DNA from: Patescibacteria group bacterium
Lineage (GTDB): Bacteria > Patescibacteriota > Microgenomatia > UBA8517
Direction of reading: 5' to 3'
Assembly (NCBI GenBank): GCA_035291665.1
Contig: DATDRP010000004.1
Span: 22,272 to 86,271 of the forward strand
Length of the DNA stretch: 64,000 bases
The translations under genes and the position numbers were made by a program. Below the pieces are notes generated by a model that saw only the letters and a list, made by a program, of their open reading frames with translations, had not been told where the DNA came from and did not search any database. Within the stretch, counting starts at the first letter, position 1. The number at the start of each line of letters is the position of its first letter. Shown here one piece after another: positions 6,341-40,897 of this stretch.

Positions 6341-6356
6341 TTAGTTTTTAAAGAAA

Positions 6357-21383: not shown

Positions 21384-22229
21384 TTAGGGGTAATTAATAT
21401 TAATCGGTTTATTTGGTTTTGATTTATCTTTTTTTCTGGCAATGATAAAGGCGATGACAAGAATTAGTAATACCAAAATCGATCCACCAATTATAACCAA
21501 TTTATTATTAGGATTGAAAATTCCGGAAGTTGAAGTGTAAACCCTTTCACCTGCGGGTTGGTTAGTGTCGGGGTTTGTTTTCGGATTCAAGGAGGGAAGA
21601 GGTCCTTCCGCATCGATTCCTTCTGTGAGAGACGTTTCATCAACCGAATCTGACCCACCCGTTGAATTCTCCGTGGGAGTAATGAGTAGTGTATCGTTTG
21701 CTTTCGGATCGGTGTTTTGGTATATGTATCCGGAAAAATTAGAAACCCTGCTTAGAATGTCACCTGTACCTTGGGAAACTGCTATGTTTGAATCAACAGT
21801 GCTTCCGGGTTCAAAATAAAACCAGACTTTTGCATTGCCTTCTTTGATTGCCTGGAATTTAATTTTAGCAAGTTCTCCCTTTCCGTTATAAGGTTTGTCG
21901 GGTGAATTAACAACACCGGATACGGTTACGGAACCTGTGTCATTATTGAAAAAAACCGAAGGGAAGTCATCGTAAATATCAGAAGCGTCAATTGCAACTA
22001 CTTTCAAAAGATTTGAATTAAAGAACAGTTTTGCACCCGCACCAAGTGAATTTTCACCATCGGTGTTTATCATTACTGAGATATCAATAACATCATATTT
22101 CTTAAGCGATGCCGATGCTGGATCCAAATAAAATTCCGGATTGGCAGCATGAATCTCACTAAAAGATAACAAAAATAGACTTACCAAAAAGACACTAAAT
22201 ATTTTTAAGTGAAGCACTTTTTTATTCAT
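21384..22229 (-). CDS. membrane-anchored protein with one cohesin-like domain (putative anchoring scaffoldin)
   Basis: Signal peptide, then a ~150-aa beta-sandwich-like segment whose pattern (...GAGAKLFFNSNLLKVVAID...SVFFNNDTGSVTVSGV...GKGELAKIKFQAIKEGNAKVWF) parallels cohesin signatures. A Thr/Ser/Pro/Asn-rich linker, a C-terminal TM helix and a KKDKSK stop-transfer follow. Confidence 0.55.
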   Translation of the reverse strand: MNKKVLHLKIFSVFLVSLFLLSFSEIHAANPEFYLDPASASLKKYDVIDISVMINTDGENSLGAGAKLFFNSNLLKVVAIDASDIYDDFPSVFFNNDTGSVTVSGVVNSPDKPYNGKGELAKIKFQAIKEGNAKVWFYFEPGSTVDSNIAVSQGTGDILSRVSNFSGYIYQNTDPKANDTLLITPTENSTGGSDSVDETSLTEGIDAEGPLPSLNPKTNPDTNQPAGERVYTSTSGIFNPNNKLVIIGGSILVLLILVIAFIIARKKDKSKPNKPININYP

Positions 22230-22253
22230 GTAAGAGATTTTACGAAGCTAAAG

Positions 22254-24500
22254 TTAGAGCTGATCCTTCAATAGATTCCAGTTATGTCTCATGATGACAT
22301 AATCAAGGTTATTAATACTTCCGCTTCGATCCAAGTCAACCAAGGACAGAGCTGTGCCGTAGTTGGGGAGCATATTAAGCGTGTAGTCGATCTCGTTTAT
22401 TTCACCGTCTCCATTAAAGTCTCCGCCCAGAAGTATCGGGTTTGAAAGATCAAGATACGAGTTTGTGGTTGATATTACAACAGGGTTTGTATCGCTTCCG
22501 TATTTTCTCGGGAGATATCCTGCAGTCTGAATCAGGAAAACATAATTACCTGTGGCGATTGATAGGATTGCTTCTCCTGCTGTATTTGTGGTTGCGGTTG
22601 TTTGAGTGATCGTTGTTGTATTGGGTTTACGATAAGAAACTGTGATGTTCGCACTGTTACTTACCCCGGTTCTCAACTTTCCCTGCATCTTGATTTTCAA
22701 AGTAACACTTGATGGAGAAGGAGTATTCGTAGCCGATACCGATGTCGGGGTAGCAGTAGGAGGTACATTTGTAGGTGTTGCGGTTGGTACAGATGTGGGT
22801 GGAACTGCAGTCGGACTGACTATGGCTCCGGGTTGAGAATATACTTCAAATTCTGCAAGCTGGAAGTAGTAATTATTATCAGAAGCATTTATTCTCAACT
22901 TTGTTGCATTAATCCTGACATATCTTGCAGTAACTTGCGTGAAGGAGAATGACTGGACGTTACTTGTCGGAAGCGCATAATTCGTAAGGTTTGCGACAGT
23001 TGTCCAAGTCGAATTATTTTGGGAAACCTGAACTGCAAAGTCGATCGGAAAGCCTTGTCCGACGTTTGAAACGTCATTTCTGGGATAAAGATTGACTTTT
23101 CCAACTGTATAGTTTGTTCCCAAATCAACGGTTATCCATTCAGTATGGGAGACACTCAAATTACTAAAACTACTCCATCCGAATGGTGCTGCGGATGAAC
23201 TTGTGTTTCCGTCAACTGCACCTGTTTTGAACCAACCCCAGTTTTCAATTGAGCTGGATGCCAGAACTGCTTTATTGAGTGCCAAATTCAAGTTTGATTG
23301 AATCGTCGGTGTGGCTGTTGGAATTTGTGTGGGAATAGCAGTTGGCTGTACGGTAGGTTGAACAGTCGGCGTTGCTGTCGGAGTTTGGCTGCCTGTTATT
23401 ATTACGGACGTCCCGTTGACGCTTGTCAGGATATCTACCGGATCTTGAGTATTCCATGTTCCGGTAAGAACCATATTCGAGTCATTTCTACCTCCCGGAG
23501 TAAAGTCGAATGTAATCTGAGATCCGGAACTAACTGCGACTCCTTTGAAAATGATATCCCCAACATGGATATTCGATCCGTTAACAGGAGTGGTTGAGGT
23601 GCCGGATCCGACATTAACTGAAATATACGCAGTTCCGGTCGTATTATTGAAAGTTAGTCTTGGGGTTGAGGTAAATCTTGGTTCATTTCCTTTTACAACA
23701 GTCACGGCTTGAAGTACTGCCGGATTGTAGTTTACTATCGCGTCAATACCGTCAACGTTTTGTCCGGCCGTATCTCCATAGATACTTACTGTAAATTGAG
23801 TGTTCAGCGTCTTTGTGCCAGGATTTGTAAGGAAAAGCCTTGCAGAACTTACTGGATTTACGGTGATATTGGCTGGAGTTGTCTGAACACCGAGCAAAAC
23901 TGATTGCATGTTATATACTTCTGTGGATTGAGACAGGCTTACTACGGCTGTTTGATTTGAGTTTGAAGTATTTTGATCGAATGTCAGCTTTGCGATGTTG
24001 GCTATGCCGGAGAGTGGTGGTGCCGGTTGAGGAGTCGGAGTACTATCGTTATATCCGATTGCGATTACCAACCTGAAGCTACCCGTTGTATTTGCCGAGG
24101 CCATTGAAGTTTTTTGAACGACTGTCCAATATTGGGGGATTACTTGGATTTCTTGAGTAAGTTTGACCATCGTAGGATCAAAATTTCCTTGCAAATCGAC
24201 AAATCCCACCTGTTCACCCTGAGTATTAATATTAAGATCGAGTGTTGTTGAAGGAGGGACGGATGCCGTAGAAGGACTCAAGTAAAGACTAACTGTTGTG
24301 ACAGCCGCCTTCAGCCTAAGTCTGATTTCTCTTTGGACTAAATAAACTCCCACAATTGCAGAGATTGTCAGAAAAATTACCAATCCAAGCTGCATTGGAT
24401 GAAGTTTTTTAAGTTTGGCAAGCAAAACTCGAAACGCTTTTTTTAAGTCGACTACATTTTTTAACATAAATAAAAAATATGTCTTTATTAACAACATCAT
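22254..24500 (-). CDS. scaffoldin-like protein: N-terminal TM anchor, two cohesin-like domains, F5/8-type-C (discoidin/CBM32-like) domain, divergent C-terminal dockerin-like module
   Basis: - Cohesin-like patterns: VGFVDLQGNFDPTMVKL...SGIANIAKLTFD and VDGIDAIVNYNPAVLQAVTV...GDIIFKGVAVSSGSQITFDF.
- Discoidin signature: ...WSSFS...EWITVDLGTNYTVGKVNLYPRND...
- C-terminus: GGDFNGDGEINEIDY...DLDRSGSINNLDYVIM, two Ca-loop-like segments. Confidence 0.6.
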   Translation of the reverse strand: MMLLIKTYFLFMLKNVVDLKKAFRVLLAKLKKLHPMQLGLVIFLTISAIVGVYLVQREIRLRLKAAVTTVSLYLSPSTASVPPSTTLDLNINTQGEQVGFVDLQGNFDPTMVKLTQEIQVIPQYWTVVQKTSMASANTTGSFRLVIAIGYNDSTPTPQPAPPLSGIANIAKLTFDQNTSNSNQTAVVSLSQSTEVYNMQSVLLGVQTTPANITVNPVSSARLFLTNPGTKTLNTQFTVSIYGDTAGQNVDGIDAIVNYNPAVLQAVTVVKGNEPRFTSTPRLTFNNTTGTAYISVNVGSGTSTTPVNGSNIHVGDIIFKGVAVSSGSQITFDFTPGGRNDSNMVLTGTWNTQDPVDILTSVNGTSVIITGSQTPTATPTVQPTVQPTAIPTQIPTATPTIQSNLNLALNKAVLASSSIENWGWFKTGAVDGNTSSSAAPFGWSSFSNLSVSHTEWITVDLGTNYTVGKVNLYPRNDVSNVGQGFPIDFAVQVSQNNSTWTTVANLTNYALPTSNVQSFSFTQVTARYVRINATKLRINASDNNYYFQLAEFEVYSQPGAIVSPTAVPPTSVPTATPTNVPPTATPTSVSATNTPSPSSVTLKIKMQGKLRTGVSNSANITVSYRKPNTTTITQTTATTNTAGEAILSIATGNYVFLIQTAGYLPRKYGSDTNPVVISTTNSYLDLSNPILLGGDFNGDGEINEIDYTLNMLPNYGTALSLVDLDRSGSINNLDYVIMRHNWNLLKDQL

Positions 24501-24532
24501 ATTCCTGTAATGTTGTCAATAGCCTTGTTAGA

Positions 24533-25858
24533 TTATAGACTATAATTCCCAAACCAAACAATATAATCAGCGCCATTTACGATCCCGTCTCTATTAAAAT
24601 CTCCGACAATATTTCCCGAAGTTGTGGGTTTTTGATAGTTTGTAAACCAAATTAAGTAATCGGCGCCGTTTGCCTTGCCGTCTCCATTTGCATCACCGGA
24701 ATTTGACCGAATCGAAGTCGGGTATACCGAAGGCAACTGATCGCTAGCTGGGACAACCACTTCTACATAATTTGACAATACAGATTCCGATCCGTTTATA
24801 TTAACAGCCGAAACGTTATAAATATATGTTTTACCCGATGTAACGCTTGTATCGGTATACGAAGTCTGATTTGCAGTAAAATCGGGGCCGTATCCGCCAT
24901 CGTCGCGCCCAATCCGATAATGGGAAATGTAGGGAGTAGTAGATGAATTCCAGGAAAGCGATACCGATTTTGATGTGATTCCCGTGACTTTCAAATTTGA
25001 AGGAGCACATACAGCGGTTCTTATTACGTTTGCAGACGAGGATACGTTACCGGAATTATCCTGGGCTGTTACTTCATAGCTGTAAGAACCACAAGACAAC
25101 GATTTATCAGTATATTGATAGCTTTCAGTAACTTGATCCATGATCGGAGTGAAGCTGTGAATTTTTGTACCGTTACGCCAAATAGAATAATTCGGAATAT
25201 CGCGATTATCTTTGGATGCAGTGCTTGTCAATTCAAAACTGTATTGCATATAATCTGAAGTGTTCTTAACGGTCAGATACGGCGCAGTCGGAGCAGTTTT
25301 GTCGACAATATTTATTATATTGTAATCAAAAGCTTCCCATTCCTCATTAAATCCAAGGTCGGGATTGAATGCATGGGCGACAACCAAATAATCTCTAACG
25401 GGATATAAATTGCTGTCGAAAGAACAGGTGAATGGAGCTGAGAAGTCAGTACACAGTTCCCAAACGTTTGGTTTATCATAATTTTCTTCCAGTCCGAATT
25501 TGACATATTTGACATCACCTGTAGTTGTGACAGTTATGTTTACCAATCCTTCAGCACTATAACCCTCTTGGGGTGAAGTGACTGTGATTGTGATCAGACC
25601 GAGTGGGGGTGTGGGAAGCGGTGTGACGGTAGGGGTGGGAACTCCGCAAGACCAAATGCAGGATGTATCGTTTGAACAAGATGAGTACTCAAAACTTGAA
25701 CAATAGGAAGGACCTGTACAACAGGAATACGCTTCGGATCTTTCGGCGGTTTTCGGATTTTGTGTAAAAAAGATGGCTATATATAAAGTGACGGATAAGA
25801 TCCCGACTGCGGAAATCTGAAGGAATAACGGTTTTTTTAATTTGTTAAGAAAATGCAT
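24533..25858 (-). CDS. secreted Ig-like/fibronectin-III repeat protein with C-terminal dockerin-like module
   Basis: N-terminal hydrophobic anchor or signal, a Cys-rich segment and Fn3-like repeats (SNLKVTGITSKSVSLSWN...). C-terminal GDANGDGKANGADYLIWFTNY...GDFNRDGIVNGADYIVWFGNY. Confidence 0.65.
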   Translation of the reverse strand: MHFLNKLKKPLFLQISAVGILSVTLYIAIFFTQNPKTAERSEAYSCCTGPSYCSSFEYSSCSNDTSCIWSCGVPTPTVTPLPTPPLGLITITVTSPQEGYSAEGLVNITVTTTGDVKYVKFGLEENYDKPNVWELCTDFSAPFTCSFDSNLYPVRDYLVVAHAFNPDLGFNEEWEAFDYNIINIVDKTAPTAPYLTVKNTSDYMQYSFELTSTASKDNRDIPNYSIWRNGTKIHSFTPIMDQVTESYQYTDKSLSCGSYSYEVTAQDNSGNVSSSANVIRTAVCAPSNLKVTGITSKSVSLSWNSSTTPYISHYRIGRDDGGYGPDFTANQTSYTDTSVTSGKTYIYNVSAVNINGSESVLSNYVEVVVPASDQLPSVYPTSIRSNSGDANGDGKANGADYLIWFTNYQKPTTSGNIVGDFNRDGIVNGADYIVWFGNYSL

Positions 25859-25957
25859 ACTCAGGTTATTTTAAGAATATGCTTAAAAGGAATTGATTGT
25901 CAAACAAAAATATTCAAAGAGGGTAAATGAATTTCGCTATTTATACGTATTTCAAGA

Positions 25958-26074
25958 ATACCCCATCTGAAGGCAATTGCCGAAGGATGGGGATGAATTG
26001 AATTAAGAATGTAACCTCGTTTAGACGGATCCGAAAGGATACCCCGCCTGAAAGCGACAGCGAGAGGGTGGGGA
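25958..26074. repeat. tandem duplicated hairpin element (2 x ~55 bp): taCCCCaTCtgaaggcaattgccgaaggaTGGGG / taCCCCgCCtgaaagcgacagcgagagGGTGGGG
   Basis: Two adjacent stem-loops with 7-bp G/C stems sit in the intergenic gap between two minus-strand dockerin genes. The spurious 60-aa ORF 25900..26082 shows the repeat as HPxAxAFRxGIL x2. Confidence 0.55.
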
Positions 26075-26103
26075 GGTTTCATATCAATGTATAAGAAAAT
26101 AGA

Positions 26104-28005
26104 TCACTTCCCGTAATTTCCGAACCAGATGATGTAATCAGCTCCGTTAACTATGGTATCTCTATTAAAATCTCCTGCTGATGGACCTTGGCTGGTTGTT
26201 TTTTTGTAGTTATTAAACCAGATCAAGTAATCGGCTCCGTTTACTTTTCCGTCGCCATTTGCATCCCCCGGTTTTGAAGTCGCCGTCGGGGTGGCTGTTG
26301 GAGTAACACTCGGTCCGCCGGTTGGCGGAGTAGGAGTAGATGAAGCCTGCGGTGTAGGCGAGGGTGGTATCGAACCGTTTACACTTATAGCTGTTGAAAA
26401 TTCACTTGCCAGTCCCGACCACTCAACCGATTTAACTTTAAACCAGGTATTTGATGTTGATCCTTGGTATCCGATACTGCCTGTATACAACCAGACAAAA
26501 GAGTCGTTCCAATGCTCGGCCGCGGTTGATCCCAGTACTCCTCGGACCAAGCCTGTAAACGAGGTGGGGGTCCTGCCGGTATAACTGACTAGTTCATTTG
26601 GTTTTTCGGATGACAGACCGGATATCTCCAGTGTACCTTGATCTGGAAAACCTGTTGTAGAATCTACATTAATTGAAGTTTGGTTATTTGTAATTTTGCT
26701 GGGAGCGTTCAGGTACGTTAACAATGAGGGGAGCAATGCAATCTGGTTATAAGTTCCCCCCTGGCTGGTGGAACCGTATATTTGATATTCCTTAATTTCC
26801 CGATGGTTAGGAGCGGGTTTAAAAGTGACTATTACATTACCGCCCGACGAAACCGCTTTCATATCAGAAGGTGCGGCGGGTTTCTTAAAAATAACATAGT
26901 AGAGATTTTTGTTTCCAGCTTGGCGAATATCTCCGCTAAATGCAATTTTAGTCGTATCGGGACTGAAGCTGGCGTTGACATAATCCCTGCCCGCATCACT
27001 CCCGTAATTTGCCACTCTTACCGGAGCCGATCCGGAAGTTGTGAGCGGTTGCGGAACACTGAAGACAAGAACGTGACCAACCTCGCCTCCAAGGTTAGCT
27101 CCCAGAACCATCCATTTAGCGTCAGGACTGAAGTTGGTGTGATCGCCATAAACTGCACCGTTTATCATAGTTAATTGTCTGGTTGCCGTATCTCGGGCAA
27201 AAAGAGTATTTGCATATTGAAAATCCGACCCATTCCCTCCGATCCAACCTTGACCTCCACCAATCATATAAGCAGAATCGGACAGGGTAGGATGGTCAAA
27301 AAGTCCTGCCCAGGTTTGGTTCCCTACATTAAGCTGGCCAAGAAATGTACCGGTATTAACATCAAAAACCATCGGTACATCTGTATATTGTTCCCATTGG
27401 CTATTATTAAGATACCAAGCGGCATTGTTACCCAGCCAGCCGTGGGTAACATCAAACCCACCTGACTGTCTGCCGGGGGAAACATAACCACGGCAATTTG
27501 TACCGTCAAGGTTAATGAACTTAACTGTACCTGTCCCGGAGCTGATATCGTTGGAGTTAGCAATACCTGAGAGTGTCCTTCCGTCGGGGCTAAGCATAGA
27601 AAAATAAAAAGGGAGGCAGGATGAGGCATTTGGAATTTGTGAAGATATGTTAGCGGCGATTTCTGTTTGGTAGAGATTTTCTTTTGAATAGTAGAACTTG
27701 CTGTCGTGGCTCCACCATCCCATCAGACCTTCCCCGACACCGCTGGAAGGGGCGCTTAAAGTGTGATTATTGTTTCCGTCAGTATTCATAACGTTATTAG
27801 GTCCGGTGATTATATATTGGCCATTAGGACTGAATGGGTTGGAAGTGTAATAAGAGGTAGGGTAGCTTGCAGAAGTATTAGTCATTCGCCATATTTCAAA
27901 GCCGGTTTCCGGATCGGTAAAGATTTCCTTGGGAGCTGCCTGAACAGGTGAGACAAAGATGGTAATAGTTAATATTGCGATAAAAACCTTAAACCAATGT
28001 GACAT
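26104..28005 (-). CDS. secreted beta-propeller (TolB/WD40-like) plus Fn3-like protein with C-terminal dockerin-like module
   Basis: Signal peptide, repeated propeller-blade-like segments, a Fn3-like domain, a TP-rich linker (TPTATPTATSKP) and GDANGDGKVNGADYLIWFNNY...GDFNRDTIVNGADYIIWFGNYGK. Confidence 0.65.
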   Translation of the reverse strand: MSHWFKVFIAILTITIFVSPVQAAPKEIFTDPETGFEIWRMTNTSASYPTSYYTSNPFSPNGQYIITGPNNVMNTDGNNNHTLSAPSSGVGEGLMGWWSHDSKFYYSKENLYQTEIAANISSQIPNASSCLPFYFSMLSPDGRTLSGIANSNDISSGTGTVKFINLDGTNCRGYVSPGRQSGGFDVTHGWLGNNAAWYLNNSQWEQYTDVPMVFDVNTGTFLGQLNVGNQTWAGLFDHPTLSDSAYMIGGGQGWIGGNGSDFQYANTLFARDTATRQLTMINGAVYGDHTNFSPDAKWMVLGANLGGEVGHVLVFSVPQPLTTSGSAPVRVANYGSDAGRDYVNASFSPDTTKIAFSGDIRQAGNKNLYYVIFKKPAAPSDMKAVSSGGNVIVTFKPAPNHREIKEYQIYGSTSQGGTYNQIALLPSLLTYLNAPSKITNNQTSINVDSTTGFPDQGTLEISGLSSEKPNELVSYTGRTPTSFTGLVRGVLGSTAAEHWNDSFVWLYTGSIGYQGSTSNTWFKVKSVEWSGLASEFSTAISVNGSIPPSPTPQASSTPTPPTGGPSVTPTATPTATSKPGDANGDGKVNGADYLIWFNNYKKTTSQGPSAGDFNRDTIVNGADYIIWFGNYGK

Positions 28006-28058
28006 GGAAGTAATTTAATAATCCATCAAAGTGAGGGTTGATGTCAATAAAATTCAAT

Positions 28059-30686: not shown

Positions 30687-30696
30687 TTATTTTGAT

Positions 30697-33342: not shown

Positions 33343-33466
33343 ACTATGTACGGAAGTTTAATATACTTCTTAAGTCTATCTTACGAAGAATTTAATTATC
33401 AAGGACTAATTTGTAATTGGCCACAGAAGCCTGATATAAGAGTATATAAATAGTATTGGAAAGTTA
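33343..33466 (-). promoter_or_regulatory. conserved intergenic promoter region upstream of the 30697..33342 gene (duplicate of 37169..37291)
   Basis: The ~120-bp intergenic sequence is about 90% identical to the region upstream of the paralogous PQQ gene. On the minus strand it contains TTGATA...TATATT-like elements. Confidence 0.35.
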
Positions 33467-34699
33467 TTATTTGTTGTAGTTACTAAACCATACAATATAG
33501 TCAGCTCCGTTAACTATGGTATCTCTATTAAAATCTCCTGCTGATGGACCTTGACTGGTTGATTTTTTATAATTTGCAAACCAGATCAAATAATCCGCTC
33601 CGTTAACTTTCCCGTCACCATTTGCATCTCCGGGTTTGGAAGTCGCCGTTGGGGTGGCTGTCGGTATGATTGTCGGTGTGGGAGTAGGAGTATTGATAAC
33701 TCCGGATGTCGGAGTCGGGGAGGGGGGGCGCACTGTTGGTGTGGGAGACGGATTAACAGAAATTCCCGCGTTGGTCAGAATTTCCGTATCAGAAAAGAGT
33801 GTAAACGTTTGTGCGTATTTGCTGTTCATTGGTTCCATGAAGAGCTTATTTGAAAGCATGCCGTTAAGAACCGTACCCATATGACTGTCACTCATTACAG
33901 CGTTGTGAGGTTCATTATTGAATGAAGTAAGGCTTATTGTTTCGCCGGCAATCGTAAAACTGGTTCCGGCAAGTTGTGTACTTGCCCATTTATTAAAATC
34001 AAATAACGCGAGATTCCGTTGGGAAGCAATTGTTGCTATTCCCTGATTGACTGTATTAATAGCCTGGGTGGCACGTTGGCGTCCGGTTGCATTTGGGTAA
34101 AGCGATTGGATAAGCAAAAACTGCCCGGGATCACCGATGTTGGCAATTATTATTGGTATGTTTTTGGTGTTCAGGATTGTATCAACAGCGGTAGTAATAT
34201 TTGCAAGAATTCCGTTTATTTTTGATTGAATTTGGGCATCAGTCATTGTGCCGTTGTAAATTGGATCGTACGTGGCAACAGCAGGGTTAGGACTGAAATC
34301 ATTTGTTCCGATCCAAATTACTGCATGGGTAACCAATCCTTGTTGTACTTGTGAAGCCAAACCTGTATGTTGTCCCGAAGTAATCATGGATGACGCGTTA
34401 GCGGCAGTTCTTGCCCAATTGTATGCATACCCGCACCGTCTTGGTTCCGAACGGCATCCCCAAGCTCCCGCATTAACACCCCGGTATTTCACCAAAAGCT
34501 CTAACCAATTATAAGTTGTTGCACTATAGCTTCCACCCCGGTTATCATCAGCCCTGTATTCATCGGTATTGCTATCACCCAATATACCCAGCCCGGTAAT
34601 CGGCGCCCCTAATACTTTACCTGTAAAAAAGAGCTGGAAAATGAGTACCAGTAAGAAAATTTTAATTTTTGAGTTTTTCAATTTCAATTTAAGGTTCAT
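33467..34699 (-). CDS. secreted SGNH/GDSL-family hydrolase (esterase/lipase-like) with C-terminal dockerin-like module
   Basis: Signal peptide, a GDSNTD block-I motif (ILGDSNTDEY) and WIGTNDF. C-terminal TPTPT linker and dockerin. Confidence 0.7.
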   Translation of the reverse strand: MNLKLKLKNSKIKIFLLVLIFQLFFTGKVLGAPITGLGILGDSNTDEYRADDNRGGSYSATTYNWLELLVKYRGVNAGAWGCRSEPRRCGYAYNWARTAANASSMITSGQHTGLASQVQQGLVTHAVIWIGTNDFSPNPAVATYDPIYNGTMTDAQIQSKINGILANITTAVDTILNTKNIPIIIANIGDPGQFLLIQSLYPNATGRQRATQAINTVNQGIATIASQRNLALFDFNKWASTQLAGTSFTIAGETISLTSFNNEPHNAVMSDSHMGTVLNGMLSNKLFMEPMNSKYAQTFTLFSDTEILTNAGISVNPSPTPTVRPPSPTPTSGVINTPTPTPTIIPTATPTATSKPGDANGDGKVNGADYLIWFANYKKSTSQGPSAGDFNRDTIVNGADYIVWFSNYNK

Positions 34700-34855
34700 A
34701 TAATTTTCCGCTTAGTAATTTCTTGGTTATTGCTATTATTTATATTACCCTGTTATGGAATATTTTTAAACTGTCTTTAAAAAACCCTTCCTGGGCGGTG
34801 AGTATTTCATAAGTAAAGAGAGCGGCCTTTGAAAACCATAGATATTAAAGTTGGA

Positions 34856-37168
34856 TCATTCGACTATTTCTAACTGCCTTGGATCAGTCAGTATGATTTC
34901 CGGGTCAACGTTTTCGGGCCAATAAAGAGTTATTTTACCTGTTACCTGGACATTTTTACCCTTTAACGTCATTGGATCAAAAGTAAATTTTGACAGGTCT
35001 TGTGCAAAAATCCGAAGCAACAAATATCCGTCATGCGGATCAGTAAATCCAAGGTAAATCGCTTTCGGTAGATTATCTTTCGCTGAAACGATGCGTCCGG
35101 TTATGGTTACAACTTTATTAATATAGTTATCTGCTTCGTCATAAGTTATAACCGGGATTCCAGAATCGCTATTTTGTACTCCCAGGACTGTTTGATCTGA
35201 ACCAGTATCTGTTATCAGATTTTCGCTATCGGCATTTGCTGTTGGGCTGCCGTTTTCAAAAACCATTAAAGCGCCGTCGTTGGTTTTAAGAAGAACCTGA
35301 TTTGCGGATACGATTGTATACGGGCTAGAACCCCCATTTCTGTCGTTCATATACTCGTAAAAACCCGGAGGGTATGATCTTGTATCGCCATATGAATAAA
35401 GACCTTGCGAACAATATCTTGATGATGATAACGTGCAGCTGCTTTGACATACGGGAGGATTCGAGCAGCCCGGGTAATCGCAAGGAGACGTACAGCCGGC
35501 AACCCCGCCGGGACAGGTACATTGTCTCCAGATAACAAACGGTACATTTTCACTTGCAATTGGATTTGTAAATGTTAAACCCAAGTTTGAACTTCTATTC
35601 GTGATTCTAGCTGCAGCGTTAATCAACCAATGTCCATGAAAAATAATATCTTTAGACATCGTCAAATTCATCATCTCGTCGGTTTGGGTGTCCTGATATT
35701 TGATAAACCGTACATCTCCTGCCTGGTAACCGGAAACGGAGCTCGCATCCAAAACCATTTCACCCATTGTTGCATCCTCCCGGCCGTCGCACCATTGTCC
35801 GCTCGGCGGCGGGCAATTGCCGGGCGTAGAACAGCCTCCGCAGGTTAAAGCATTCCGCCAGATGATATAAACTACTTCTTTCCCGTCGCTCGTGATTGCA
35901 ACTACCGGCTTCGGGCCTAGCGATAAACTGCCTCCATCACCCGAGCCTCCGTTGCCAACTGCAGGCGGTACGTACGATGTTGCATCGCTCCAGCTTGTTG
36001 TTTTGCCTGAAACTGGCCATGCCGGAAGCCCGCTATCCAGATTTATGGCAAATAATGCTTGATCACCGGGTTTACCCTGAAGGTAACTTTTAATCTCACT
36101 ATTAGTATTGGGAAACATCTTATCCGTCCAAGTTGTCCATGGCAAGCGATACCGGACAAAGACTATGCCGTGGTTTTCAGCCACCACAGGCCAACTGTTG
36201 TTAAATTCTATTGATCCGGCAGAGTAAGTATTGATGGTAGGTTTAACTTTCCAAACCTGCGCCCCTGTTACTGCATTCACAGCATGTACATACAAATCCT
36301 GTGAATTGGCAATCAACAAATTCCGAGATGTTGAATAAGCTGGAGCGGTTACCAAAGTGTTGCCGGAATTATATGACCATACTTGCGTCATGTTGTCGGT
36401 ATTTACGGAAATTAAATTGGTAACAGCGGATAAATAAATTCTGTTATTAACAAGAAGGGGAGCGTAATTCAAAGCCTTCCCTGAGTTGAAAGTTCCGGTG
36501 ATTGCCCCGGTCGAGGCGTTGATTTTGTATAAATTGCCATTTGTTGAGGCAACATAAAGAAGCTCATTATTATAAACCGGCGAGGAATTCAGAGCTCCAA
36601 GTGCTGTATTCGACCACATAACGTTTCCGTTCGTTTTGTTCAAAGCATAAACTCCACCTTCTGAAACCATATAAATTCTACTTCCGCCGGTTATCGGTTG
36701 GACCAATCCCGGGACGCTCAAATGTCCTGTCTGAGTTTTTGCATCACTACCAGACCCGTTCCATTGCCAAATATGTTTCCAAGGTAAAGCTACAGTTTGG
36801 GTGGTAAAATTTGTCCTTTGTACGTCGTGTCCGAATTGAGTCCACTCACTTATTGTTGCCGGAACCGGAGTAGGTGTTGGTCCGGATGGTGTTGGAGTGG
36901 GCGAGATCCGTCCGTAATTATTAAACCAGATGAGGTAATCGGCTCCGTTTACCATGGTATCCCCATTAAAATCACCGGCTAGTGCGCCCTGACTAGTCGA
37001 CTTTTTATAGTTATTAAACCAGACCAAATAATCAGCTCCGTTTACTTTCCCGTCACCATTTGCATCTCCGGGTAGGGAAGATTGAGCTAATGCATAATTG
37101 GAACACGAAAGTAATAGTATTGAGGATATCAGTATCGTTTTAAGATGTAGATTACTAATCTTTTTCAT
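34856..37168 (-). CDS. secreted PQQ-like beta-propeller protein with N-terminal dockerin-like module (paralog of 30697..33342)
   Basis: Same architecture as its paralog, and they share WCDGREDATMGEMVLD and N-terminal dockerin sequences. Confidence 0.7.
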   Translation of the reverse strand: MKKISNLHLKTILISSILLLSCSNYALAQSSLPGDANGDGKVNGADYLVWFNNYKKSTSQGALAGDFNGDTMVNGADYLIWFNNYGRISPTPTPSGPTPTPVPATISEWTQFGHDVQRTNFTTQTVALPWKHIWQWNGSGSDAKTQTGHLSVPGLVQPITGGSRIYMVSEGGVYALNKTNGNVMWSNTALGALNSSPVYNNELLYVASTNGNLYKINASTGAITGTFNSGKALNYAPLLVNNRIYLSAVTNLISVNTDNMTQVWSYNSGNTLVTAPAYSTSRNLLIANSQDLYVHAVNAVTGAQVWKVKPTINTYSAGSIEFNNSWPVVAENHGIVFVRYRLPWTTWTDKMFPNTNSEIKSYLQGKPGDQALFAINLDSGLPAWPVSGKTTSWSDATSYVPPAVGNGGSGDGGSLSLGPKPVVAITSDGKEVVYIIWRNALTCGGCSTPGNCPPPSGQWCDGREDATMGEMVLDASSVSGYQAGDVRFIKYQDTQTDEMMNLTMSKDIIFHGHWLINAAARITNRSSNLGLTFTNPIASENVPFVIWRQCTCPGGVAGCTSPCDYPGCSNPPVCQSSCTLSSSRYCSQGLYSYGDTRSYPPGFYEYMNDRNGGSSPYTIVSANQVLLKTNDGALMVFENGSPTANADSENLITDTGSDQTVLGVQNSDSGIPVITYDEADNYINKVVTITGRIVSAKDNLPKAIYLGFTDPHDGYLLLRIFAQDLSKFTFDPMTLKGKNVQVTGKITLYWPENVDPEIILTDPRQLEIVE

Positions 37169-37291
37169 ACTATATACGGAAGTTTTGTATAATTGTTAAG
37201 TCTATCTTACGAAGAATTTGATTATCAAGGACTAATTTGAGTTTAGCCACCAGCAAACGATATACATATATATAGTAGTATGGTAAAGGTA
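37169..37291 (-). promoter_or_regulatory. conserved intergenic promoter region upstream of the 34856..37168 gene (duplicate of 33343..33466)
   Basis: See the 33343..33466 entry. Confidence 0.35.
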
Positions 37292-39649
37292 CTATTTGTT
37301 GTAGTTACTAAACCAGACAATATAGTCGGCTCCGTTAACTATCGTATCTCCATTAAAATCTCCGGCTGATGGGCCTTGTGTCGTTGACTTTTTATAGTTA
37401 TTAAACCAAACCAAATAATCGGCTCCGTTTACTTTTCCGTCACCATTGGCATCCCCCGGTTTTGCAGCATTTGTAGGAGTAGCAGTTGGAGTAAGACTGG
37501 GTCCGCCGGTTGGGGGAATAGGGGTCGGACTGATCGGGGAGATTTGGGTTGGTACAACAAGGTAAAGGGGAAATCGGGTATCTGTAGAAACCCGGACCGT
37601 ACCCGCATTTGCATCAAATACCGTGTTAAGCTGTACCACTGTTCCGTCATCGTTCACACCGGATATATTTAGATTTTTACCACCGGTTGCAAAGGTAATG
37701 GTAAAAGAGGTAGGAACAACCAAACGCGTATTTGATTCACTACCCCAACTGGTCACTGTTTCACCGTCGACCGTACCGGTGAATCCCGCAGCATTGGTAA
37801 CAGTCTGGTAAGAGTGAACAAACAGTTTGGCCGATCCGGAGAATAAGGGATAATTGGCATCACTCCTGATCATAACTAATGCGTTTTCCATAGGTGTTAC
37901 CCCTGACAGGGTCATCGGACCGATGGTGGTGTTTTTAAGATCGTTGACTAAACCGACGACTGCCGGGGCGTTAATTGTCACGCCGGTGCTTTTGGCAAAT
38001 ACCTGGCCTCCCGGAATCTGTATACCTGCTGCAAATTGTGTATCTGTTACTTTAGGATAATTACTAACATTTTGTGGAGAACCAAAGCTCATATAGAGCC
38101 GTTTGAGCCAATATCCGCGTTCAGAACCATCCCAGCCGTTTTGAAAGGAAAATGGAGAGAGAGCTAGTGATCCTTTAGACACTTGTTGGGCAAGATATTG
38201 AGAATTTTCAAATACGGAAACATGTTTTTCCGGCAGAGGATTTATAAACCTATATTCGACGATTGGCCCTGCTAATAGATCGCCCAAGCGGCGTGACGGA
38301 GCACCTACATGATGGTGGATATACTGGATACCTGACGCTTTTGCCTGATATAACGCTTGAGATTCATTGAAAACCAAAAATCCCGATGTTTGTTGCAGAC
38401 TATGGACAATAGCCTCCAGGATTGTCCTCTCGTAATCCCAGCGGTTAAGACCGTAATCGCCGACTTCCGGAACAGTGAATGGTGTATTTTCTAAACGACT
38501 GCCATCCATCGCCATACTCCAAAAGAAACCATTCGGATCCCGAAGAATACTTGTGCGCGTCTGGTAATTAGGCGGGTTGGTGATGGCATCACCTGAAGGA
38601 ACCCGTGCATAAATATGGCGGGAAGAAATATTGGTATTGGCAAGCACATGCCCGTCCATATAATTAAAAGTATTCATTACAACCAGAATATTGGGATTTA
38701 AGGATTTGAACCAGTCATACATATCTTTTGAATATTCGATCTCAGTATCACTCATAAACTTCACGAAATTTGATTTGTCTGTTGTAGTCCACCCATTGTA
38801 TGTGCTTTTTGCAGGAAACTGATTACCGGGAAGTGTCCAGCCTTTACCGGCATAATACGTACGGATCTTCGTATCAAGCTCCGGTTTCCAATACGCATTG
38901 GGGTCTGACGGATTAAGGATATTGTCAAACCATCCATTATGGCTGAAATATGCATCGGACAATCCATCTTCATTATACGGTTGCCAGATTATTCCGGGAT
39001 TATCTTTATATTTGATGCCTGTCTGGGTATTGATCCGATCGGCAAACCGTAGAATATGGACCTTTGCGATTTTATCTCGAAATTCCCTGCTCCAACTCAT
39101 ACCAAATGATCTGTAAACACCGACCGGATATCCTGACCGTGCTGCTGCATTTTCAAAAAAGAAACCTCCCATCCAGATCTGCATTCCCATTTGGTTGGCC
39201 CGGGCAATGGTTTTATCAAGCTGTACCATGCATTTTTCGGAAAGATCAGTTCCGGTTGGACCAGCCCAACAGCTATAACTGGCTGCGGAAGTGGTCATAT
39301 CCTTGACGTCATATCCCATCACACGTATAGTATTGAAACCTGCTGCGGCAATTCGTTTGATAGTTTTCAGATTATCTTCATCCGTCATATAACTGGTTGC
39401 GCCGATAGCAGCTGAGCCTTCATTTAATCCGGTACCAAAAATAATGAATTCCTTGCCACTGCGCATTAGTTTGCCGTTTTCAACAGTTAACCAGGATGTG
39501 ATTGGTGGCCGAGATGGTGCAGCCGCCTGACCGAAACTGCTGTCCCAGGCTGGATTCCAATCGATAAGCACAGATTGGGCATTTAGTGATGAAATAGGAA
39601 ATAAAAGAAAGAAAGAGGTCACCAGAAAACAGCGAAAAAAAGTTTTCAT
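37292..39649 (-). CDS. secreted glycoside hydrolase family 5-like protein with C-terminal dockerin-like module
   Basis: Signal peptide. GH5-like blocks AGFNTIRVMGYD and IWQPYNEDG (NE acid/base) in a TIM-barrel-sized N-domain. C-terminal beta-rich domain, linker and dockerin. Confidence 0.55.
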   Translation of the reverse strand: MKTFFRCFLVTSFFLLFPISSLNAQSVLIDWNPAWDSSFGQAAAPSRPPITSWLTVENGKLMRSGKEFIIFGTGLNEGSAAIGATSYMTDEDNLKTIKRIAAAGFNTIRVMGYDVKDMTTSAASYSCWAGPTGTDLSEKCMVQLDKTIARANQMGMQIWMGGFFFENAAARSGYPVGVYRSFGMSWSREFRDKIAKVHILRFADRINTQTGIKYKDNPGIIWQPYNEDGLSDAYFSHNGWFDNILNPSDPNAYWKPELDTKIRTYYAGKGWTLPGNQFPAKSTYNGWTTTDKSNFVKFMSDTEIEYSKDMYDWFKSLNPNILVVMNTFNYMDGHVLANTNISSRHIYARVPSGDAITNPPNYQTRTSILRDPNGFFWSMAMDGSRLENTPFTVPEVGDYGLNRWDYERTILEAIVHSLQQTSGFLVFNESQALYQAKASGIQYIHHHVGAPSRRLGDLLAGPIVEYRFINPLPEKHVSVFENSQYLAQQVSKGSLALSPFSFQNGWDGSERGYWLKRLYMSFGSPQNVSNYPKVTDTQFAAGIQIPGGQVFAKSTGVTINAPAVVGLVNDLKNTTIGPMTLSGVTPMENALVMIRSDANYPLFSGSAKLFVHSYQTVTNAAGFTGTVDGETVTSWGSESNTRLVVPTSFTITFATGGKNLNISGVNDDGTVVQLNTVFDANAGTVRVSTDTRFPLYLVVPTQISPISPTPIPPTGGPSLTPTATPTNAAKPGDANGDGKVNGADYLVWFNNYKKSTTQGPSAGDFNGDTIVNGADYIVWFSNYNK

Positions 39650-39733
39650 AATAAAGCCTTATATCATTTTGTTGCGGTTGAACATTGAAGTCAAGTGGTG
39701 TCAATGTTGTTTATCTCGAATATTAACAAAAAC

Positions 39734-40897
39734 TTACTTTCCGTAATTACCAAACCAAACTAAATAGTCTCCACCATTAACAAATCCATCCTCGTTAAAG
39801 TCTCCTGCTAATGCTCCCTGGCTGGTTGATTTTTTATAGTTATTAAACCAGACCAAATAATCCGCTCCGTTTACTTTCCCGTCGCCATTAGCATCCCCCG
39901 GTTTTACAGCAATTATCGGGGTAGCTGTTGGAGTAAGACTGGGTCCGCCGGTTGGGGGAGTAGAAGCACCGGGGATTGAACTTGCAATCCAAACAGATCC
40001 TTGCCGAAGATCGCCGGTTATACCGTTACCACTAGCGTCATTCAAAATATATCCCGTCCCATTACCCTCATCCAGGTGATATAAAAGTAGTGTATTTATA
40101 TCATTAATGTATGGATTTGAGGGAGGAGTAAAACTTCCCTGATACCGTAAATTATTTGAGATCCTCAGTTCATCAAAATAACCGTTGTATGATGGATATT
40201 GACTTCCTGCATCATGTTTTTCAGCAGCAATGACAAGGTATGGGTCGCTCTCATTACAACTCGGTCCGGTTGAAAGATTAGTACAGCAGGTTGAACAGGG
40301 GACTGCGTTATCGGGATAAGATATTACTCCGTCAGGTCCGTCTGCTTCTGCCCTGACAATCCCGTCAACAAAGATCCACATATATCCATCCGATATTCGT
40401 CTCTCAATGGCAACATGGTGCCAAATGTCGTCAAGTACGGTATTACCACCGCAGATTGTGCGGTTTCCCGTACCGTTACCGCTGACGCCGAAAACCAATT
40501 TTCCGCCGGCAATTGATAAGCCGAATTTTCTGTCCTGGTTAAATCGGTCGCGGTCGATGACAATATTTCCGAATATCCAGTTGTCATTTGTTCCGCATGC
40601 GACGGATGAAGATGTATTATCAGCGCTTTTTGCTCTCATCCAAAATTCCAATGTAAAATCAGTATCTCCGATATCAGCAGCAGTACTTTCTGAATTTTGA
40701 CCATTAATTGGAATTTTAATCCGATCGAGCTGATTTGTGCCGGTTCCGTTAAACTTGAGAGCCGATCCAAAATCTGCGTAAGCTTTATTAAAGTTTGATA
40801 TTAAAAGAAAGAAAGCCGTAAGAAAAATAGTTAATAATCTCAACTGAAGGCTAATTGTAATTTTGTTTTTGAAGCGCTTTGTTAACATGATGTTCAA
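39734..40897 (-). CDS. secreted LamG/concanavalin-A-like lectin domain protein with C-terminal dockerin-like module
   Basis: Signal peptide. LamG-like pattern (LEFWMRAKS...DDIWHHVAIER...FDELRISN). C-terminal linker and dockerin (GDANGDGKVNGADYLVWFNNY...GDFNEDGFVNGGDYLVWFGNYGK). Confidence 0.7.
   Translation of the reverse strand: MNIMLTKRFKNKITISLQLRLLTIFLTAFFLLISNFNKAYADFGSALKFNGTGTNQLDRIKIPINGQNSESTAADIGDTDFTLEFWMRAKSADNTSSSVACGTNDNWIFGNIVIDRDRFNQDRKFGLSIAGGKLVFGVSGNGTGNRTICGGNTVLDDIWHHVAIERRISDGYMWIFVDGIVRAEADGPDGVISYPDNAVPCSTCCTNLSTGPSCNESDPYLVIAAEKHDAGSQYPSYNGYFDELRISNNLRYQGSFTPPSNPYINDINTLLLYHLDEGNGTGYILNDASGNGITGDLRQGSVWIASSIPGASTPPTGGPSLTPTATPIIAVKPGDANGDGKVNGADYLVWFNNYKKSTSQGALAGDFNEDGFVNGGDYLVWFGNYGK

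Follow-up and report, generated by a model that had tools for sequence, protein, structure and literature searches.

Ten co-directional open reading frames (ORFs) occupy positions 21384..40897 on the minus strand of the window, which is the whole 64-kb stretch of DNA that was analysed, and are separated by intergenic gaps of 10-245 nt. An earlier note on this DNA had described ten consecutive genes for secreted proteins; all ten were recovered on the minus strand with identical coordinates, and hydropathy analysis found a hydrophobic N-terminal export or anchor segment in 10/10 of the encoded proteins (P1-P10), in line with predicted export. A census of the window that combined HMM searches with a motif scan located three cohesins and nine dockerins, every one of them within the cluster. 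The earlier note had considered that the modules might be a generic sorting signal found genome-wide on unrelated proteins; no dockerin or cohesin was found outside the cluster in the 64-kb window by either the motif scan or the HMM census, which argues against this for the window. Searches of the cluster proteins against Pfam and NCBIfam gave no match to an SLH domain or LPXTG motif. A scan for promoters and terminators gave counts at chance level, and Rfam and tRNA scans returned three tRNAs only, without rRNA.

Cohesins of the predicted anchor and adaptor

The predicted cohesins are carried by P1 and P2, which have the following features:

21384..22229, minus strand: P1 (281 aa), anchor, with a signal peptide at aa 1-28
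21714..22142, minus strand: predicted type-I-like cohesin of P1, single (aa ~30-172)
Between the P1 cohesin and TM helix: disordered linker rich in P, T and N
21441..21497, minus strand: strong C-terminal TM helix of P1 (aa 245-263; hydropathy)
Basic tail of P1: RKKDKSK
22254..24500, minus strand: P2 (748 aa), scaffoldin-like adaptor, with an N-terminal signal-anchor at aa 37-55
23847..24311, minus strand: putative cohesin a of P2 (aa ~64-218)
23394..23831, minus strand: putative cohesin b of P2 (aa ~224-369)
Between cohesin b and the discoidin domain: PT linker of P2
22866..23261, minus strand: discoidin/F5_F8_type_C domain of P2 (aa 414-545; Pfam, 72.5 bits)
Between the discoidin domain and the dockerin: beta-sandwich of P2
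22272..22433, minus strand: divergent asymmetric dockerin of P2 (aa ~690-743; Dockerin_1, 21.8 bits)

A protein identical to P1 has already been named [quoted passage not shown] by NCBI. Structural evidence for this assignment came from an AF2 model of P1, in which the ectodomain has a pLDDT of 80-90. When the model was compared with the PDB using Foldseek, the top 50 matches were all cohesins. The best match was 1g1k (E 1.5e-9, target TM 0.76), the type I cohesins 1aoh and 1ohz superpose on the model, and the A. fulgidus cohesin 2xdh is also among the fold matches; the identity of P1 to clostridial cohesins is only 10-21%. As modelled, the P1 ectodomain is a cohesin fold, and this, together with the C-terminal TM helix, agrees with the cohesin-like beta-sandwich and TM anchor that had been proposed for P1.

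As single sequences, P1 and P2 gave no cohesin match in Pfam (PF00963, E<=1), NCBIfam or the PDB. PF00963 matched only their homologs, namely 6/6 P1 homologs (best E-value 2.2e-9) and 4/7 members of the P2 family (best E-value 1.1e-10), a family of seven sequences comprising orthologs drawn from related loci, so that membership of P1 and P2 in the cohesin sequence family is by transitive homology. Profile comparison suggests that P2 carries two cohesin modules: using hhalign, cohesin b aligned to the P1-family profile with a probability of 97.6% (E 3.8e-12), and the profile of cohesin a aligned to the P1 family with a probability of 96.2% (E 2.6e-9). The best PDB match of the cohesin a profile is the cohesin CaCohA2. 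Since the AF2 model of P2, built from a 3-sequence alignment, has a mean pLDDT of 44, it is the profile evidence that carries the fold assignment of the P2 cohesins. The two domains, the discoidin domain and the divergent dockerin together give P2 the composition originally described. It had also been suggested that the cohesin-like segments might be unrelated beta-sandwiches; cohesins make up all of the top 50 PDB matches to the P1 model, and the P2 domains match cohesin profiles. The discoidin domain of P2 is an insertion unique to the source lineage and is missing from P2 orthologs.

Dockerins and cargo proteins

The remaining eight proteins each combine one dockerin with other domains:

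24533..25858, minus strand: P3 (441 aa), N-terminal TM/signal-anchor, Cys-rich stretch, Ig-like and Fn3 domains (fn3, 32.6 bits)
24539..24700, minus strand: C-terminal dockerin of P3 (aa 387-440; Dockerin_1, 23.4 bits)
26104..28005, minus strand: P4 (633 aa), signal peptide, PD40/TolB-like propeller region, Fn3-like region
26110..26271, minus strand: C-terminal dockerin of P4 (aa 579-632; Dockerin_1, 27.3 bits)
28059..30686, minus strand: P5 (875 aa), signal peptide, DUF5060 Ig-like domain, clan GH-A-like TIM barrel
TIM barrel of P5: WENHNE with putative acid/base E473, nucleophile candidate E590, inserted beta-sandwich
28065..28226, minus strand: C-terminal dockerin of P5 (aa 821-874)
30697..33342, minus strand: P6 (881 aa), signal peptide, CBM6/35, PT linker, PQQ/BamB-like beta-propeller, C-terminal domain
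33094..33255, minus strand: N-terminal dockerin of P6 (aa 30-83; Dockerin_1, 25.6 bits)
33467..34699, minus strand: P7 (410 aa), signal peptide, SGNH/GDSL esterase, PT linker
33473..33634, minus strand: C-terminal dockerin of P7 (aa 356-409; Dockerin_1, 22.9 bits)
34856..37168, minus strand: P8 (770 aa), signal peptide, PQQ/BamB-like beta-propeller, C-terminal OB-like domain
36911..37072, minus strand: N-terminal dockerin of P8 (aa 33-86; Dockerin_1, 28.0 bits)
37292..39649, minus strand: P9 (785 aa), signal peptide, divergent GH5-like (mannanase-related) TIM barrel, beta-sandwich region
Catalytic-type residues of P9: N226-E227, H345, Y347, E395
37298..37459, minus strand: C-terminal dockerin of P9 (aa 731-784; Dockerin_1, 24.3 bits)
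39734..40897, minus strand: P10 (387 aa), signal peptide, LamG/ConA-like lectin domain, PT linker (Laminin_G_3, 48.7 bits)
39740..39901, minus strand: C-terminal dockerin of P10 (aa 333-386; Dockerin_1, 31.1 bits)

The dockerins of P3-P10 are 54 aa long and lie at the C-terminus in 6/8 proteins and at the N-terminus in P6 and P8, as had been noted. All eight reach the Pfam gathering score for Dockerin_1 (PF00404) of 22.9 bits, with scores of 22.9-31.1 bits; the P2 dockerin, at 21.8 bits, falls slightly under it, and 7/7 members of the P2 family match Dockerin_1 (best E-value 1.6e-5). The HMM check proposed in the earlier note therefore identified the modules as dockerins. NCBIfam "GC-type dockerin" was rejected, with scores of 13-16 bits against a cut-off of 29. 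Direct reading of the sequences revealed two tandem 22-residue segments in 9/9 modules, each with a 12-residue Ca-binding loop followed by a helix. The calcium loop and helix described previously, D1-N3-D5-N9-D12 followed by Y-[LI]-[IV]-W-F-x-N-Y, could be read in every dockerin segment; segment 2 of the P2 dockerin has D-L-D-R-S-G-S-I-N-N-L-D.

Two classes of dockerin can be distinguished. The enzyme-type dockerins are internally symmetric, with 13-16/22 positions identical between segments, whereas the P2-type dockerin is asymmetric (6/22), in keeping with the divergence first noticed in P2, and its family scores 43-102 bits with its own HMM. Protein identity is 67-96% among the eight enzyme-type dockerins and 81-96% among those of P4-P10, with the P3 dockerin the most divergent (67-76% identity to the others). 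Third codon positions of the P4-P10 dockerins are only about 0.5-0.7 identical. The exception is the P4/P5 pair, for which dockerin and linker are 98% identical at the nucleotide level. Apart from P4/P5, this combination of similar protein and divergent third positions is consistent with purifying selection exerted by a common partner, as opposed to copying in the recent past.

Enzyme-like cargo accounts for three of the eight proteins, the putative hydrolases P5, P7 and P9; the rest have lectin, binding or propeller modules. P5, which had been left as an unassigned GH-like domain, appears to be a DUF5060 and GH-A-like enzyme: it matches the PDB entry 9gmj "DUF5060 domain-containing protein" (E 9.9e-20), and W468, E469, N472, E473, H529 and E590 are invariant across seven homologs. 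For P9, PF00150 gave no match to the protein itself but matched 3/20 family members. The P9-family profile matches the GH5 mannanases 1uuq (E 4.1e-18) and 8gf3 (E 3.2e-17), in a match that reaches to the NE motif, and the family shows no variation at N226, E227, Y347 and E395 and very little at H345. P7 scores above the cut-offs of Lipase_GDSL_2 (PF13472, 38.6 bits) and Lipase_GDSL (PF00657, 35.0 bits), with catalytic blocks GDS (aa 41) and GTND (aa 131); no clear block V DxxH motif could be made out when the sequence blocks were inspected. P6 (CBM_6, 29.4 bits; PQQ_2, 46.5 bits) and P8 (PQQ_2, 61.1 bits; BamB structures, E ~1e-11) are paralogs, linked by the repeat families D2/D3/D4, and P4 has one PD40 repeat (22.0 bits against a cut-off of 20.9). 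The domains originally listed (discoidin, SGNH, LamG, two PQQ-like propellers, Fn3, one PD40 repeat and a GH5-like barrel) were thus recovered, and the CBM6/35 of P6 adds to that list. The true start of P10 may be an ATG three codons downstream of the TTG.

A proposed two-tier surface complex and its alternatives

With a probability of roughly 70%, the cluster encodes a two-tier, membrane-anchored cohesin-dockerin surface complex that displays glycan-active proteins, with binding and substrate both presumptive. According to this model, the asymmetric dockerin of P2 would plug into the cohesin of P1, which is retained in the membrane through the C-terminal TM helix, and would thereby hold the adaptor on the cell. 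The symmetric dockerins of P3-P10 would compete for the two cohesins of P2, and possibly for that of P1 too, leading to a heterogeneous complex in which P9, P5 and P7 would be gathered with LamG, CBM6, discoidin, Fn3, PQQ-like and PD40 modules. The target would be an extracellular glycan. This assignment of partners is suggested solely by gene adjacency and dockerin class.

Adjacency recurs in related loci. A gene for two cohesins and a divergent dockerin lies directly upstream of a cohesin-TM gene in 19/19 informative loci, that is, in 6/6 genome loci and 13/13 metagenome loci where the pairing could be judged, and the two genes frequently overlap. The P1 and P2 families are present in Patescibacteria MAGs, and the system was found again in many CPR MAGs. 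Dockerin cargo accompanies the scaffoldin/anchor pair both in the window and at eight related loci (L005, L006, L009, L024, L027, L029, L030 and L034). P5-like or P8-like proteins with the same dockerin type adjoin the pair in L009, L027, L029, L030 and L034; full-length P5 homologs do so in L009, L027, L029 and L034, and full-length P8 homologs in L009 (50% identical) and L030 (37%). Additional carbohydrate-active-like cargo in relatives includes beta-helix lyase folds, a polysaccharide lyase and DUF4434. The earlier view that such an assembly is unexpected in a CPR genome was overstated, given the NCBI name of P1, this recurrence and a previous report of cohesin and dockerin genes in CPR (PMC9123182).

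As to function, we lean toward polysaccharide degradation for nutrient capture over action on the surface glycans of a host or partner cell. The same architecture could instead serve episymbiosis, as a device that attaches to or remodels glycans in the envelope of a host or partner cell, which is possible if somewhat unlikely: the cargo consists mostly of the binding and propeller modules named above, and an epibiotic life is typical of CPR bacteria. In the cultured Saccharibacterium Southlakia, a protein with a dockerin domain is essential and, as its authors speculate, may be directed at host glycans (PMC10633639); a part in cell-cell interaction has been proposed for scaffoldin-like cohesin/dockerin proteins of ANME archaea (PMC9012536), and the P2 discoidin domain and dockerin have weak PDB matches among C. 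perfringens host-glycan enzymes. However, the conserved enzymes are GH-A glycosidases, an esterase and, in relatives, lyases, a repertoire typical of polysaccharide breakdown, and P2 orthologs lack the discoidin domain. Alternatively, the assembly could be flat, with all three cohesins binding enzyme-type dockerins, P1 and P2 separately TM-anchored, and the P2 dockerin binding another partner or none. The N-terminal hydrophobic anchor of P2 is consistent with this arrangement, since tethering by P1 would not be strictly required, as are the relatedness of the P1 cohesin and P2 cohesin b, which makes shared specificity possible, and the two tandem anchor genes in each of L007 and L009. A flat assembly is nevertheless distinctly unlikely given the strict adjacency, often with overlap, of adaptor and anchor genes at every informative locus. 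Moreover, the P2-type dockerin is a distinct conserved class, and in more distant CPR loci the gene for a small dockerin protein lies directly upstream of a cohesin gene.

It is very unlikely that there is no complex and that the dockerins are stand-alone calcium-binding or surface-retention tags near unrelated cohesins, although many non-cellulosomal dockerins are taken to have such a role and hundreds of different proteins carry the subtype (at E<=1e-10, 425 representative clusters, most matching through the dockerin only). The related complete genome CP055307 has six genes with such dockerins and no cohesin in the 21.6-kb stretch examined, and cohesins and dockerins are widespread beyond cellulosome producers (Peer et al. 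2009, as cited in PMC9012536). Set against these data are the co-occurrence of dockerin cargo with the scaffoldin/anchor pair, the apparent purifying selection on the eight dockerins despite diverging synonymous sites, and the mutual binding of archaeal non-cellulosomal pairs in work cited in PMC9012536. Recent transfer of the cluster from Firmicutes as a cellulosome island is hardly credible and was rejected. While the GC content of the cluster (0.42-0.48) exceeds that of the flanks (0.36-0.39), and the cluster sits between M16 peptidase and ADK-like genes that are adjacent in a syntenic relative, the GC excess lies chiefly at second codon positions, and hence reflects amino-acid composition, and GC3, P5 apart, is close to that of the genome. 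Both the P1 and the P2 family are CPR-specific, identity to clostridial cohesins is low (10-21%), and a scan of the borders found no repeats or mobile-element signatures.

To our knowledge, Firmicutes are the only group in which scaffoldin-based cohesin-dockerin complexes have been characterised by experiment; the system of anaerobic fungi is analogous but not related. If real, a conserved two-tier form in CPR would bring the principle to a very large radiation of tiny genomes, most of it uncultured, and the devotion of some 20 kb (about 2% of a 1-Mb genome) to one surface complex implies importance to the cell. The significance is limited by the modules having been annotated automatically and noted once in the CPR literature. 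A four-part core (cohesin anchor, two-cohesin adaptor with dockerin, DUF5060 GH-A enzyme and dockerin-tagged PQQ-like propeller) is found repeatedly among Patescibacteria lineages. It is rather doubtful that this core is a CPR-specific surface nanomachine, the first scaffoldin-based complex outside Firmicutes, that grips and digests host envelope or capsule glycans locally; if it were, it would be a molecular basis of episymbiotic attachment and feeding. The three cohesins and two dockerin classes are clonable parts with which to probe extracellular enzyme organisation in CPR, and perhaps also how CPR bacteria engage hosts or polymers, and they may yield orthogonal cohesin-dockerin pairs for synthetic biology.

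Relation to known cohesin-dockerin systems

In Clostridium perfringens, non-cellulosomal cohesin-dockerin pairing occurs among toxins and glycosidases that are rich in F5/8 type C (CBM32) domains and act on host glycans. Structures of these complexes (2ozn, 2jh2, 2vo8) are among the matches to the P1 model and the P2 discoidin domain and dockerin, weakly so for the window modules; in contrast to the proposed two-tier complex, the C. perfringens enzymes pair mutually, without a scaffoldin and anchor. Archaeal proteins (Archaeoglobus fulgidus; ANME) likewise place cohesins and dockerins in organisms that do not degrade cellulose, and ANME archaea have proteins with one dockerin and several cohesins that have been proposed to act in cell-cell or surface organisation (PMC9012536). 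These belong to another domain of life and have other cargo, with no comparable conserved operon described. The Ruminococcus bromii amylosome is also a small system in which cohesin-dockerin interactions organise non-cellulase enzymes, with some proteins bearing cohesin and dockerin together (PMC4611034), but it is found in a Firmicute, with GH13 amylase cargo and other anchoring. Ca. Shapirobacterales BG1-G2, compared here by description, is a CPR (Microgenomates) bacterium in which cohesin and dockerin genes are expressed, along with GHs and PLs, and were interpreted as a cellulosome (Bell et al. 2022, PMC9123182). That account is one paragraph of domain annotations, without locus architecture, an anchor/adaptor distinction or conservation analysis.

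Relative to the cellulosome of C. (Acetivibrio) thermocellum (CipA, SdbA/OlpB), the cluster comes from a CPR bacterium whose genome is about 1 Mb in size, and the low cohesin identity to clostridial sequences given above sets it further apart. P2 has only two scaffoldin cohesins, compared with 6-9 in classical scaffoldins, anchoring is by TM helices rather than by SLH domains or sortase, and the binding module of P2 is a lineage-specific discoidin/CBM32-like domain rather than CBM3. The cargo of the cluster includes PQQ-like propellers, two with N-terminal dockerins, and no GH9 or GH48 classical cellulases, so that the term cellulosome is unsupported in its strict sense. Of the cellulosome-like complex first proposed, the cohesin and dockerin modules and the two-cohesin scaffoldin stand. 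In C. thermocellum, enzyme dockerins bind scaffoldin cohesins, and the divergent dockerin of the scaffoldin binds the anchor cohesin. The proposed complex would resemble this system in having two dockerin classes and two tiers. The likeness extends to dockerins with a duplicated Ca-binding loop and helix, to enzyme dockerins that are internally symmetric, as are type I dockerins with a dual binding mode, to a carbohydrate-binding module on the scaffoldin, and to the P1 model, which superposes on type I cohesins.

Organization and cargo of the gene cluster

Ten consecutive ORFs occupy 21384..40897, exactly where the earlier note had placed a ten-gene cluster; all are on the minus strand and are separated by intergenic gaps of 10-245 nt. 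Numbered from the low-coordinate end, the encoded proteins are as follows.

P1, minus strand: cohesin-TM anchor
P2, minus strand: 748-aa scaffoldin-like adaptor
P3, minus strand: Fn3 and Ig-like domains, dockerin
P4, minus strand: PD40 (one repeat above threshold), dockerin
P5, 28059..30686, minus strand: DUF5060-type protein, dockerin
P6, minus strand: CBM6/35 and PQQ/BamB-like propeller, dockerin
P7, minus strand: SGNH/GDSL esterase, dockerin
P8, minus strand: PQQ/BamB-like propeller, dockerin
P9, minus strand: putative GH5-like glycosidase, dockerin
P10, 39734..40897, minus strand: LamG/ConA-like domain, dockerin

All ten proteins have a hydrophobic export or anchor segment at the N-terminus; in P1 there is, in addition, a strong TM helix at the C-terminal end (aa 245-263), with RKKDKSK behind it. 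Each dockerin consists of two 22-residue segments, each with a D1-N3-D5-N9-D12 loop and, after it, a Y-[LI]-[IV]-W-F-x-N-Y helix. The modules of P3-P10, previously called dockerin-like, score 22.9-31.1 bits with Pfam Dockerin_1 (PF00404), for which the gathering score is 22.9 bits; P2 scores 21.8 bits. As the earlier note had described, two of the cargo dockerins are N-terminal (P6 and P8, directly behind the signal peptide), and the other six of P3-P10 are C-terminal. A motif scan combined with an HMM census found eight dockerins of the P3-P10 kind (“enzyme-type”), one divergent dockerin and three cohesins in the cluster, and no dockerin or cohesin in any other ORF of the 64-kb window. Within the window, the modules are thus confined to the cluster and are not spread as a generic sorting signal over unrelated genes.

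The cargo domains proposed earlier were largely recovered. A profile of 20 relatives of P9 matches the GH5 beta-mannanases 1uuq (E 4.1e-18) and 8gf3 (E 3.2e-17), and N226-E227, Y347 and E395 are invariant in the family, with H345 nearly invariant; P9, the proposed GH5-like TIM barrel, is predicted to be a divergent clan GH-A, GH5-like glycosidase. The GH-like domain that had been left unassigned is that of P5, which matches a solved “DUF5060 domain-containing protein” (PDB 9gmj, E 9.9e-20). Residues W468-E469-x-x-N472-E473, H529 and E590 are invariant across seven homologs, and are the predicted GH-A acid/base and nucleophile pattern. The SGNH/GDSL esterase, LamG, two PQQ propellers and Fn3 repeats were located in P7, P10, P6/P8 and P3, respectively, while the TolB-like propeller is represented only by the single PD40 repeat of P4. 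Overall, the cargo appears to comprise three catalytic proteins and five with a binding or scaffold role; neither GH9 nor GH48 cellulases were found in the cluster. A Cys-rich stretch in P3 (CCTGPSYCSSFEYSSCSNDTSCIWSCG, aa ~45-75, window 25700..25760) lies directly behind the membrane segment. The P10 ORF begins with TTG, and an ATG three codons downstream (MLTKRF...) yields a more typical signal peptide, suggesting that the true start may be at 40888.

Cohesins, dockerin classes and the adaptor

Searches with single sequences gave no cohesin match for P1 or P2, but PF00963 is matched by 6/6 P1 homologs (best E-value 2.2e-9) and by four of seven members of the P2 family, all seven of which match Dockerin_1. 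The P1 database record reads [quoted passage not shown]. An AlphaFold model of P1, built on the alignment of its six homologs, has an ectodomain pLDDT of 80-90 and a cohesin fold, in line with the beta-sandwich described earlier. Foldseek comparison of this model with the PDB gave 85 matches at E<=0.001; the top 50 are all cohesin modules, the best being 1g1k (E 1.5e-9, TM-score 0.76 normalised to target). The predicted structure of P2, from a 3-sequence alignment, has a mean pLDDT of 44. Profile comparison bears out the two cohesin-like domains proposed for P2: the second (cohesin b) aligns with the P1-family profile with an hhalign probability of 97.6% (E 3.8e-12), and the profile of the first (cohesin a) does so at 96.2% (E 2.6e-9). 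Among PDB sequences, the cohesin a profile matches best with CaCohA2, a cohesin of C. acetobutylicum, in an end-to-end alignment. On these profile matches, both P2 domains are assigned as cohesins.

The dockerins of P4-P10 share 81-96% protein identity, while third-position identity in codons for identical residues is only about 0.5-0.7, indicating that the dockerin sequence has been kept by selection rather than copied recently. P4 and P5 are the exception: their dockerins and PT linkers (26108..26314 and 28063..28269) are 95-98% identical at the nucleotide level, compared with 67-89% for all other dockerin pairs, a pattern suggestive of recent gene conversion between these adjacent genes. 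Upstream of the paralogs P6 and P8 lies a shared 90-nt stretch (33335..33424 and 37161..37250, 88% identity) in which the promoter-like hexamers are also the same. The regulatory region was therefore part of the duplication, and P6 and P8 probably have their own promoters within the cluster.

Enzyme-type dockerins are internally symmetric, with 13-16 of 22 positions identical between segments and the same residues at positions 10-11 and 13-20. The dockerin of P2, rightly described as divergent, is asymmetric (6/22). In cellulosomes, symmetric dockerins are enzyme-borne and have a dual binding mode, while asymmetric dockerins bind in a single mode and serve in anchoring. By analogy, this rule may extend to the two classes in the cluster.

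Orthologs of P2 (P0020 and proteins in the related loci L005-L010) are ~550 aa long and have the same layout without a discoidin domain. The discoidin domain proposed for P2 is present (F5_F8_type_C, 72.5 bits; window 22866..23261), inserted within the PT linker. It is missing from all six aligned orthologs, and is therefore a glycan-binding module that the adaptor gained in this lineage only.

Conservation and genomic setting

A scan of species-representative genomes with the P1 family yielded 14 loci, most of them from Patescibacteria MAGs, but some from Saccharibacteria, Peregrinibacteria and Dojkabacteria and one from a member of the Chloroflexota. A P2 ortholog lies immediately upstream in 6/6 loci with close P1 relatives; in more distant loci, a small dockerin protein is encoded directly upstream of the cohesin gene. 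Among metagenome contigs, a scan with the P2 family identified 16 loci; in 13 of them the sequence continues past the P2-like gene, and in all 13 the next gene, often an overlapping one, encodes a cohesin anchor. Full-length homologs of P5 and P8 (up to 50% identity) adjoin this adaptor-anchor pair in L009, L027, L029, L030 and L034; they carry the same dockerin type, again N-terminal in one propeller. Conserved gene order and cargo thus point to a four-part core, in which the anchor and the adaptor are accompanied by the DUF5060 enzyme and the PQQ-like propeller. Additional cargo in other loci includes beta-helix lyase-like proteins, a polysaccharide lyase and DUF4434. Homologs of P3, P9 and P10 were not found in these related loci, and these three proteins look accessory. 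In two loci, the adaptor gene is followed by a tandem pair of cohesin-TM anchor genes rather than a single one (L007 2084..3809, L009 9157..10891). A further locus (L021 10001..13021) encodes a 1006-aa protein with five tandem dockerins of the window's subtype; its organism has a GC content of 0.50 and is probably not a CPR bacterium, and the neighbourhood otherwise contains ordinary metabolic genes.

The genes flanking the cluster are typical housekeeping genes (leuS, comEA, split comEC, argS, M16 peptidase and an adenylate-kinase-like, or ADK-like, gene), and there is synteny with the complete 0.9-Mb genome CP055307 (locus L019). In CP055307, the M16 and ADK-like genes (50% and 62% protein identity to their counterparts in the window) are adjacent (L019 11710..14059), and six dockerin genes surround them. 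The window has the entire 19.5-kb cluster between M16 (20086..21357) and ADK-like (41019..42128), in the opposite orientation. The site therefore looks like a hotspot of dockerin-gene gain and loss. The reported split of comEC into Competence and Lactamase_B ORFs is found in both genomes (window 5243..7259; L019 3659..5550), and is thus a conserved feature rather than an assembly artefact. Recent transfer of the cluster from Firmicutes is unlikely, given that its GC excess is mainly a second-codon-position effect of P/T/G/A-rich proteins and that no repeats were found at its borders. Only P5 has a clearly raised GC3 (0.48; the other cluster genes have 0.32-0.41 and the flanking genes 0.26-0.40), and it may have been acquired later than its neighbours. 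Beyond the M16 gene lies a gene for a PaaX-like protein with a Cas2-like domain (19066..19863), and beyond the ADK-like gene one for a GGDEF diguanylate cyclase (42201..43142); either could regulate the cluster.

A candidate surface complex and known cohesin-dockerin systems

With module identity, export and anchoring signals and the genetic linkage of the parts established, the cluster supports, in hedged form, the proposal of a cellulosome-like surface complex. The P2 dockerin would dock on the P1 cohesin, tethering the adaptor to the membrane. Apparent translational coupling between the genes of the P2 and P1 families speaks for a stoichiometric P2-P1 interaction. The eight enzyme-type dockerins would then compete for the two cohesins of P2, and possibly for that of P1. 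The main uncertainty for these pairing rules is that P2 has an anchor of its own and that the P1 cohesin is related to cohesin b. The outcome would be a heterogeneous complex gathering hydrolases, an esterase and glycan-binding modules on a glycan substrate, for which polysaccharide, free or from plants, and host-cell surface glycans are both candidates.

Such an assembly is less unexpected in CPR bacteria than the earlier note supposed. Expressed cohesin and dockerin genes of Ca. Shapirobacterales were read as a cellulosome (Bell et al. 2022, PMC9123182), and a dockerin-domain protein is essential in a cultured Saccharibacterium (Wang et al. 2023, PMC10633639). While cohesin and dockerin genes in CPR were thus already known, no description of the anchor/adaptor/cargo architecture or its conservation was found in the literature searched. 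Cohesin-dockerin systems other than cellulosomes have been described from all three domains of life (Peer et al. 2009, as cited in PMC9012536); among them are the amylosome of R. bromii (PMC4611034) and, in ANME archaea, scaffoldin-like proteins (PMC9012536).

In its proposed operation, the cluster resembles the two-tier CipA/SdbA cellulosome of C. thermocellum. It differs in having a scaffoldin with only two cohesins, anchoring by a TM helix rather than by SLH or sortase, and a discoidin domain in place of CBM3. It also lacks cellulases, and includes unusual propeller cargo with N-terminal dockerins.
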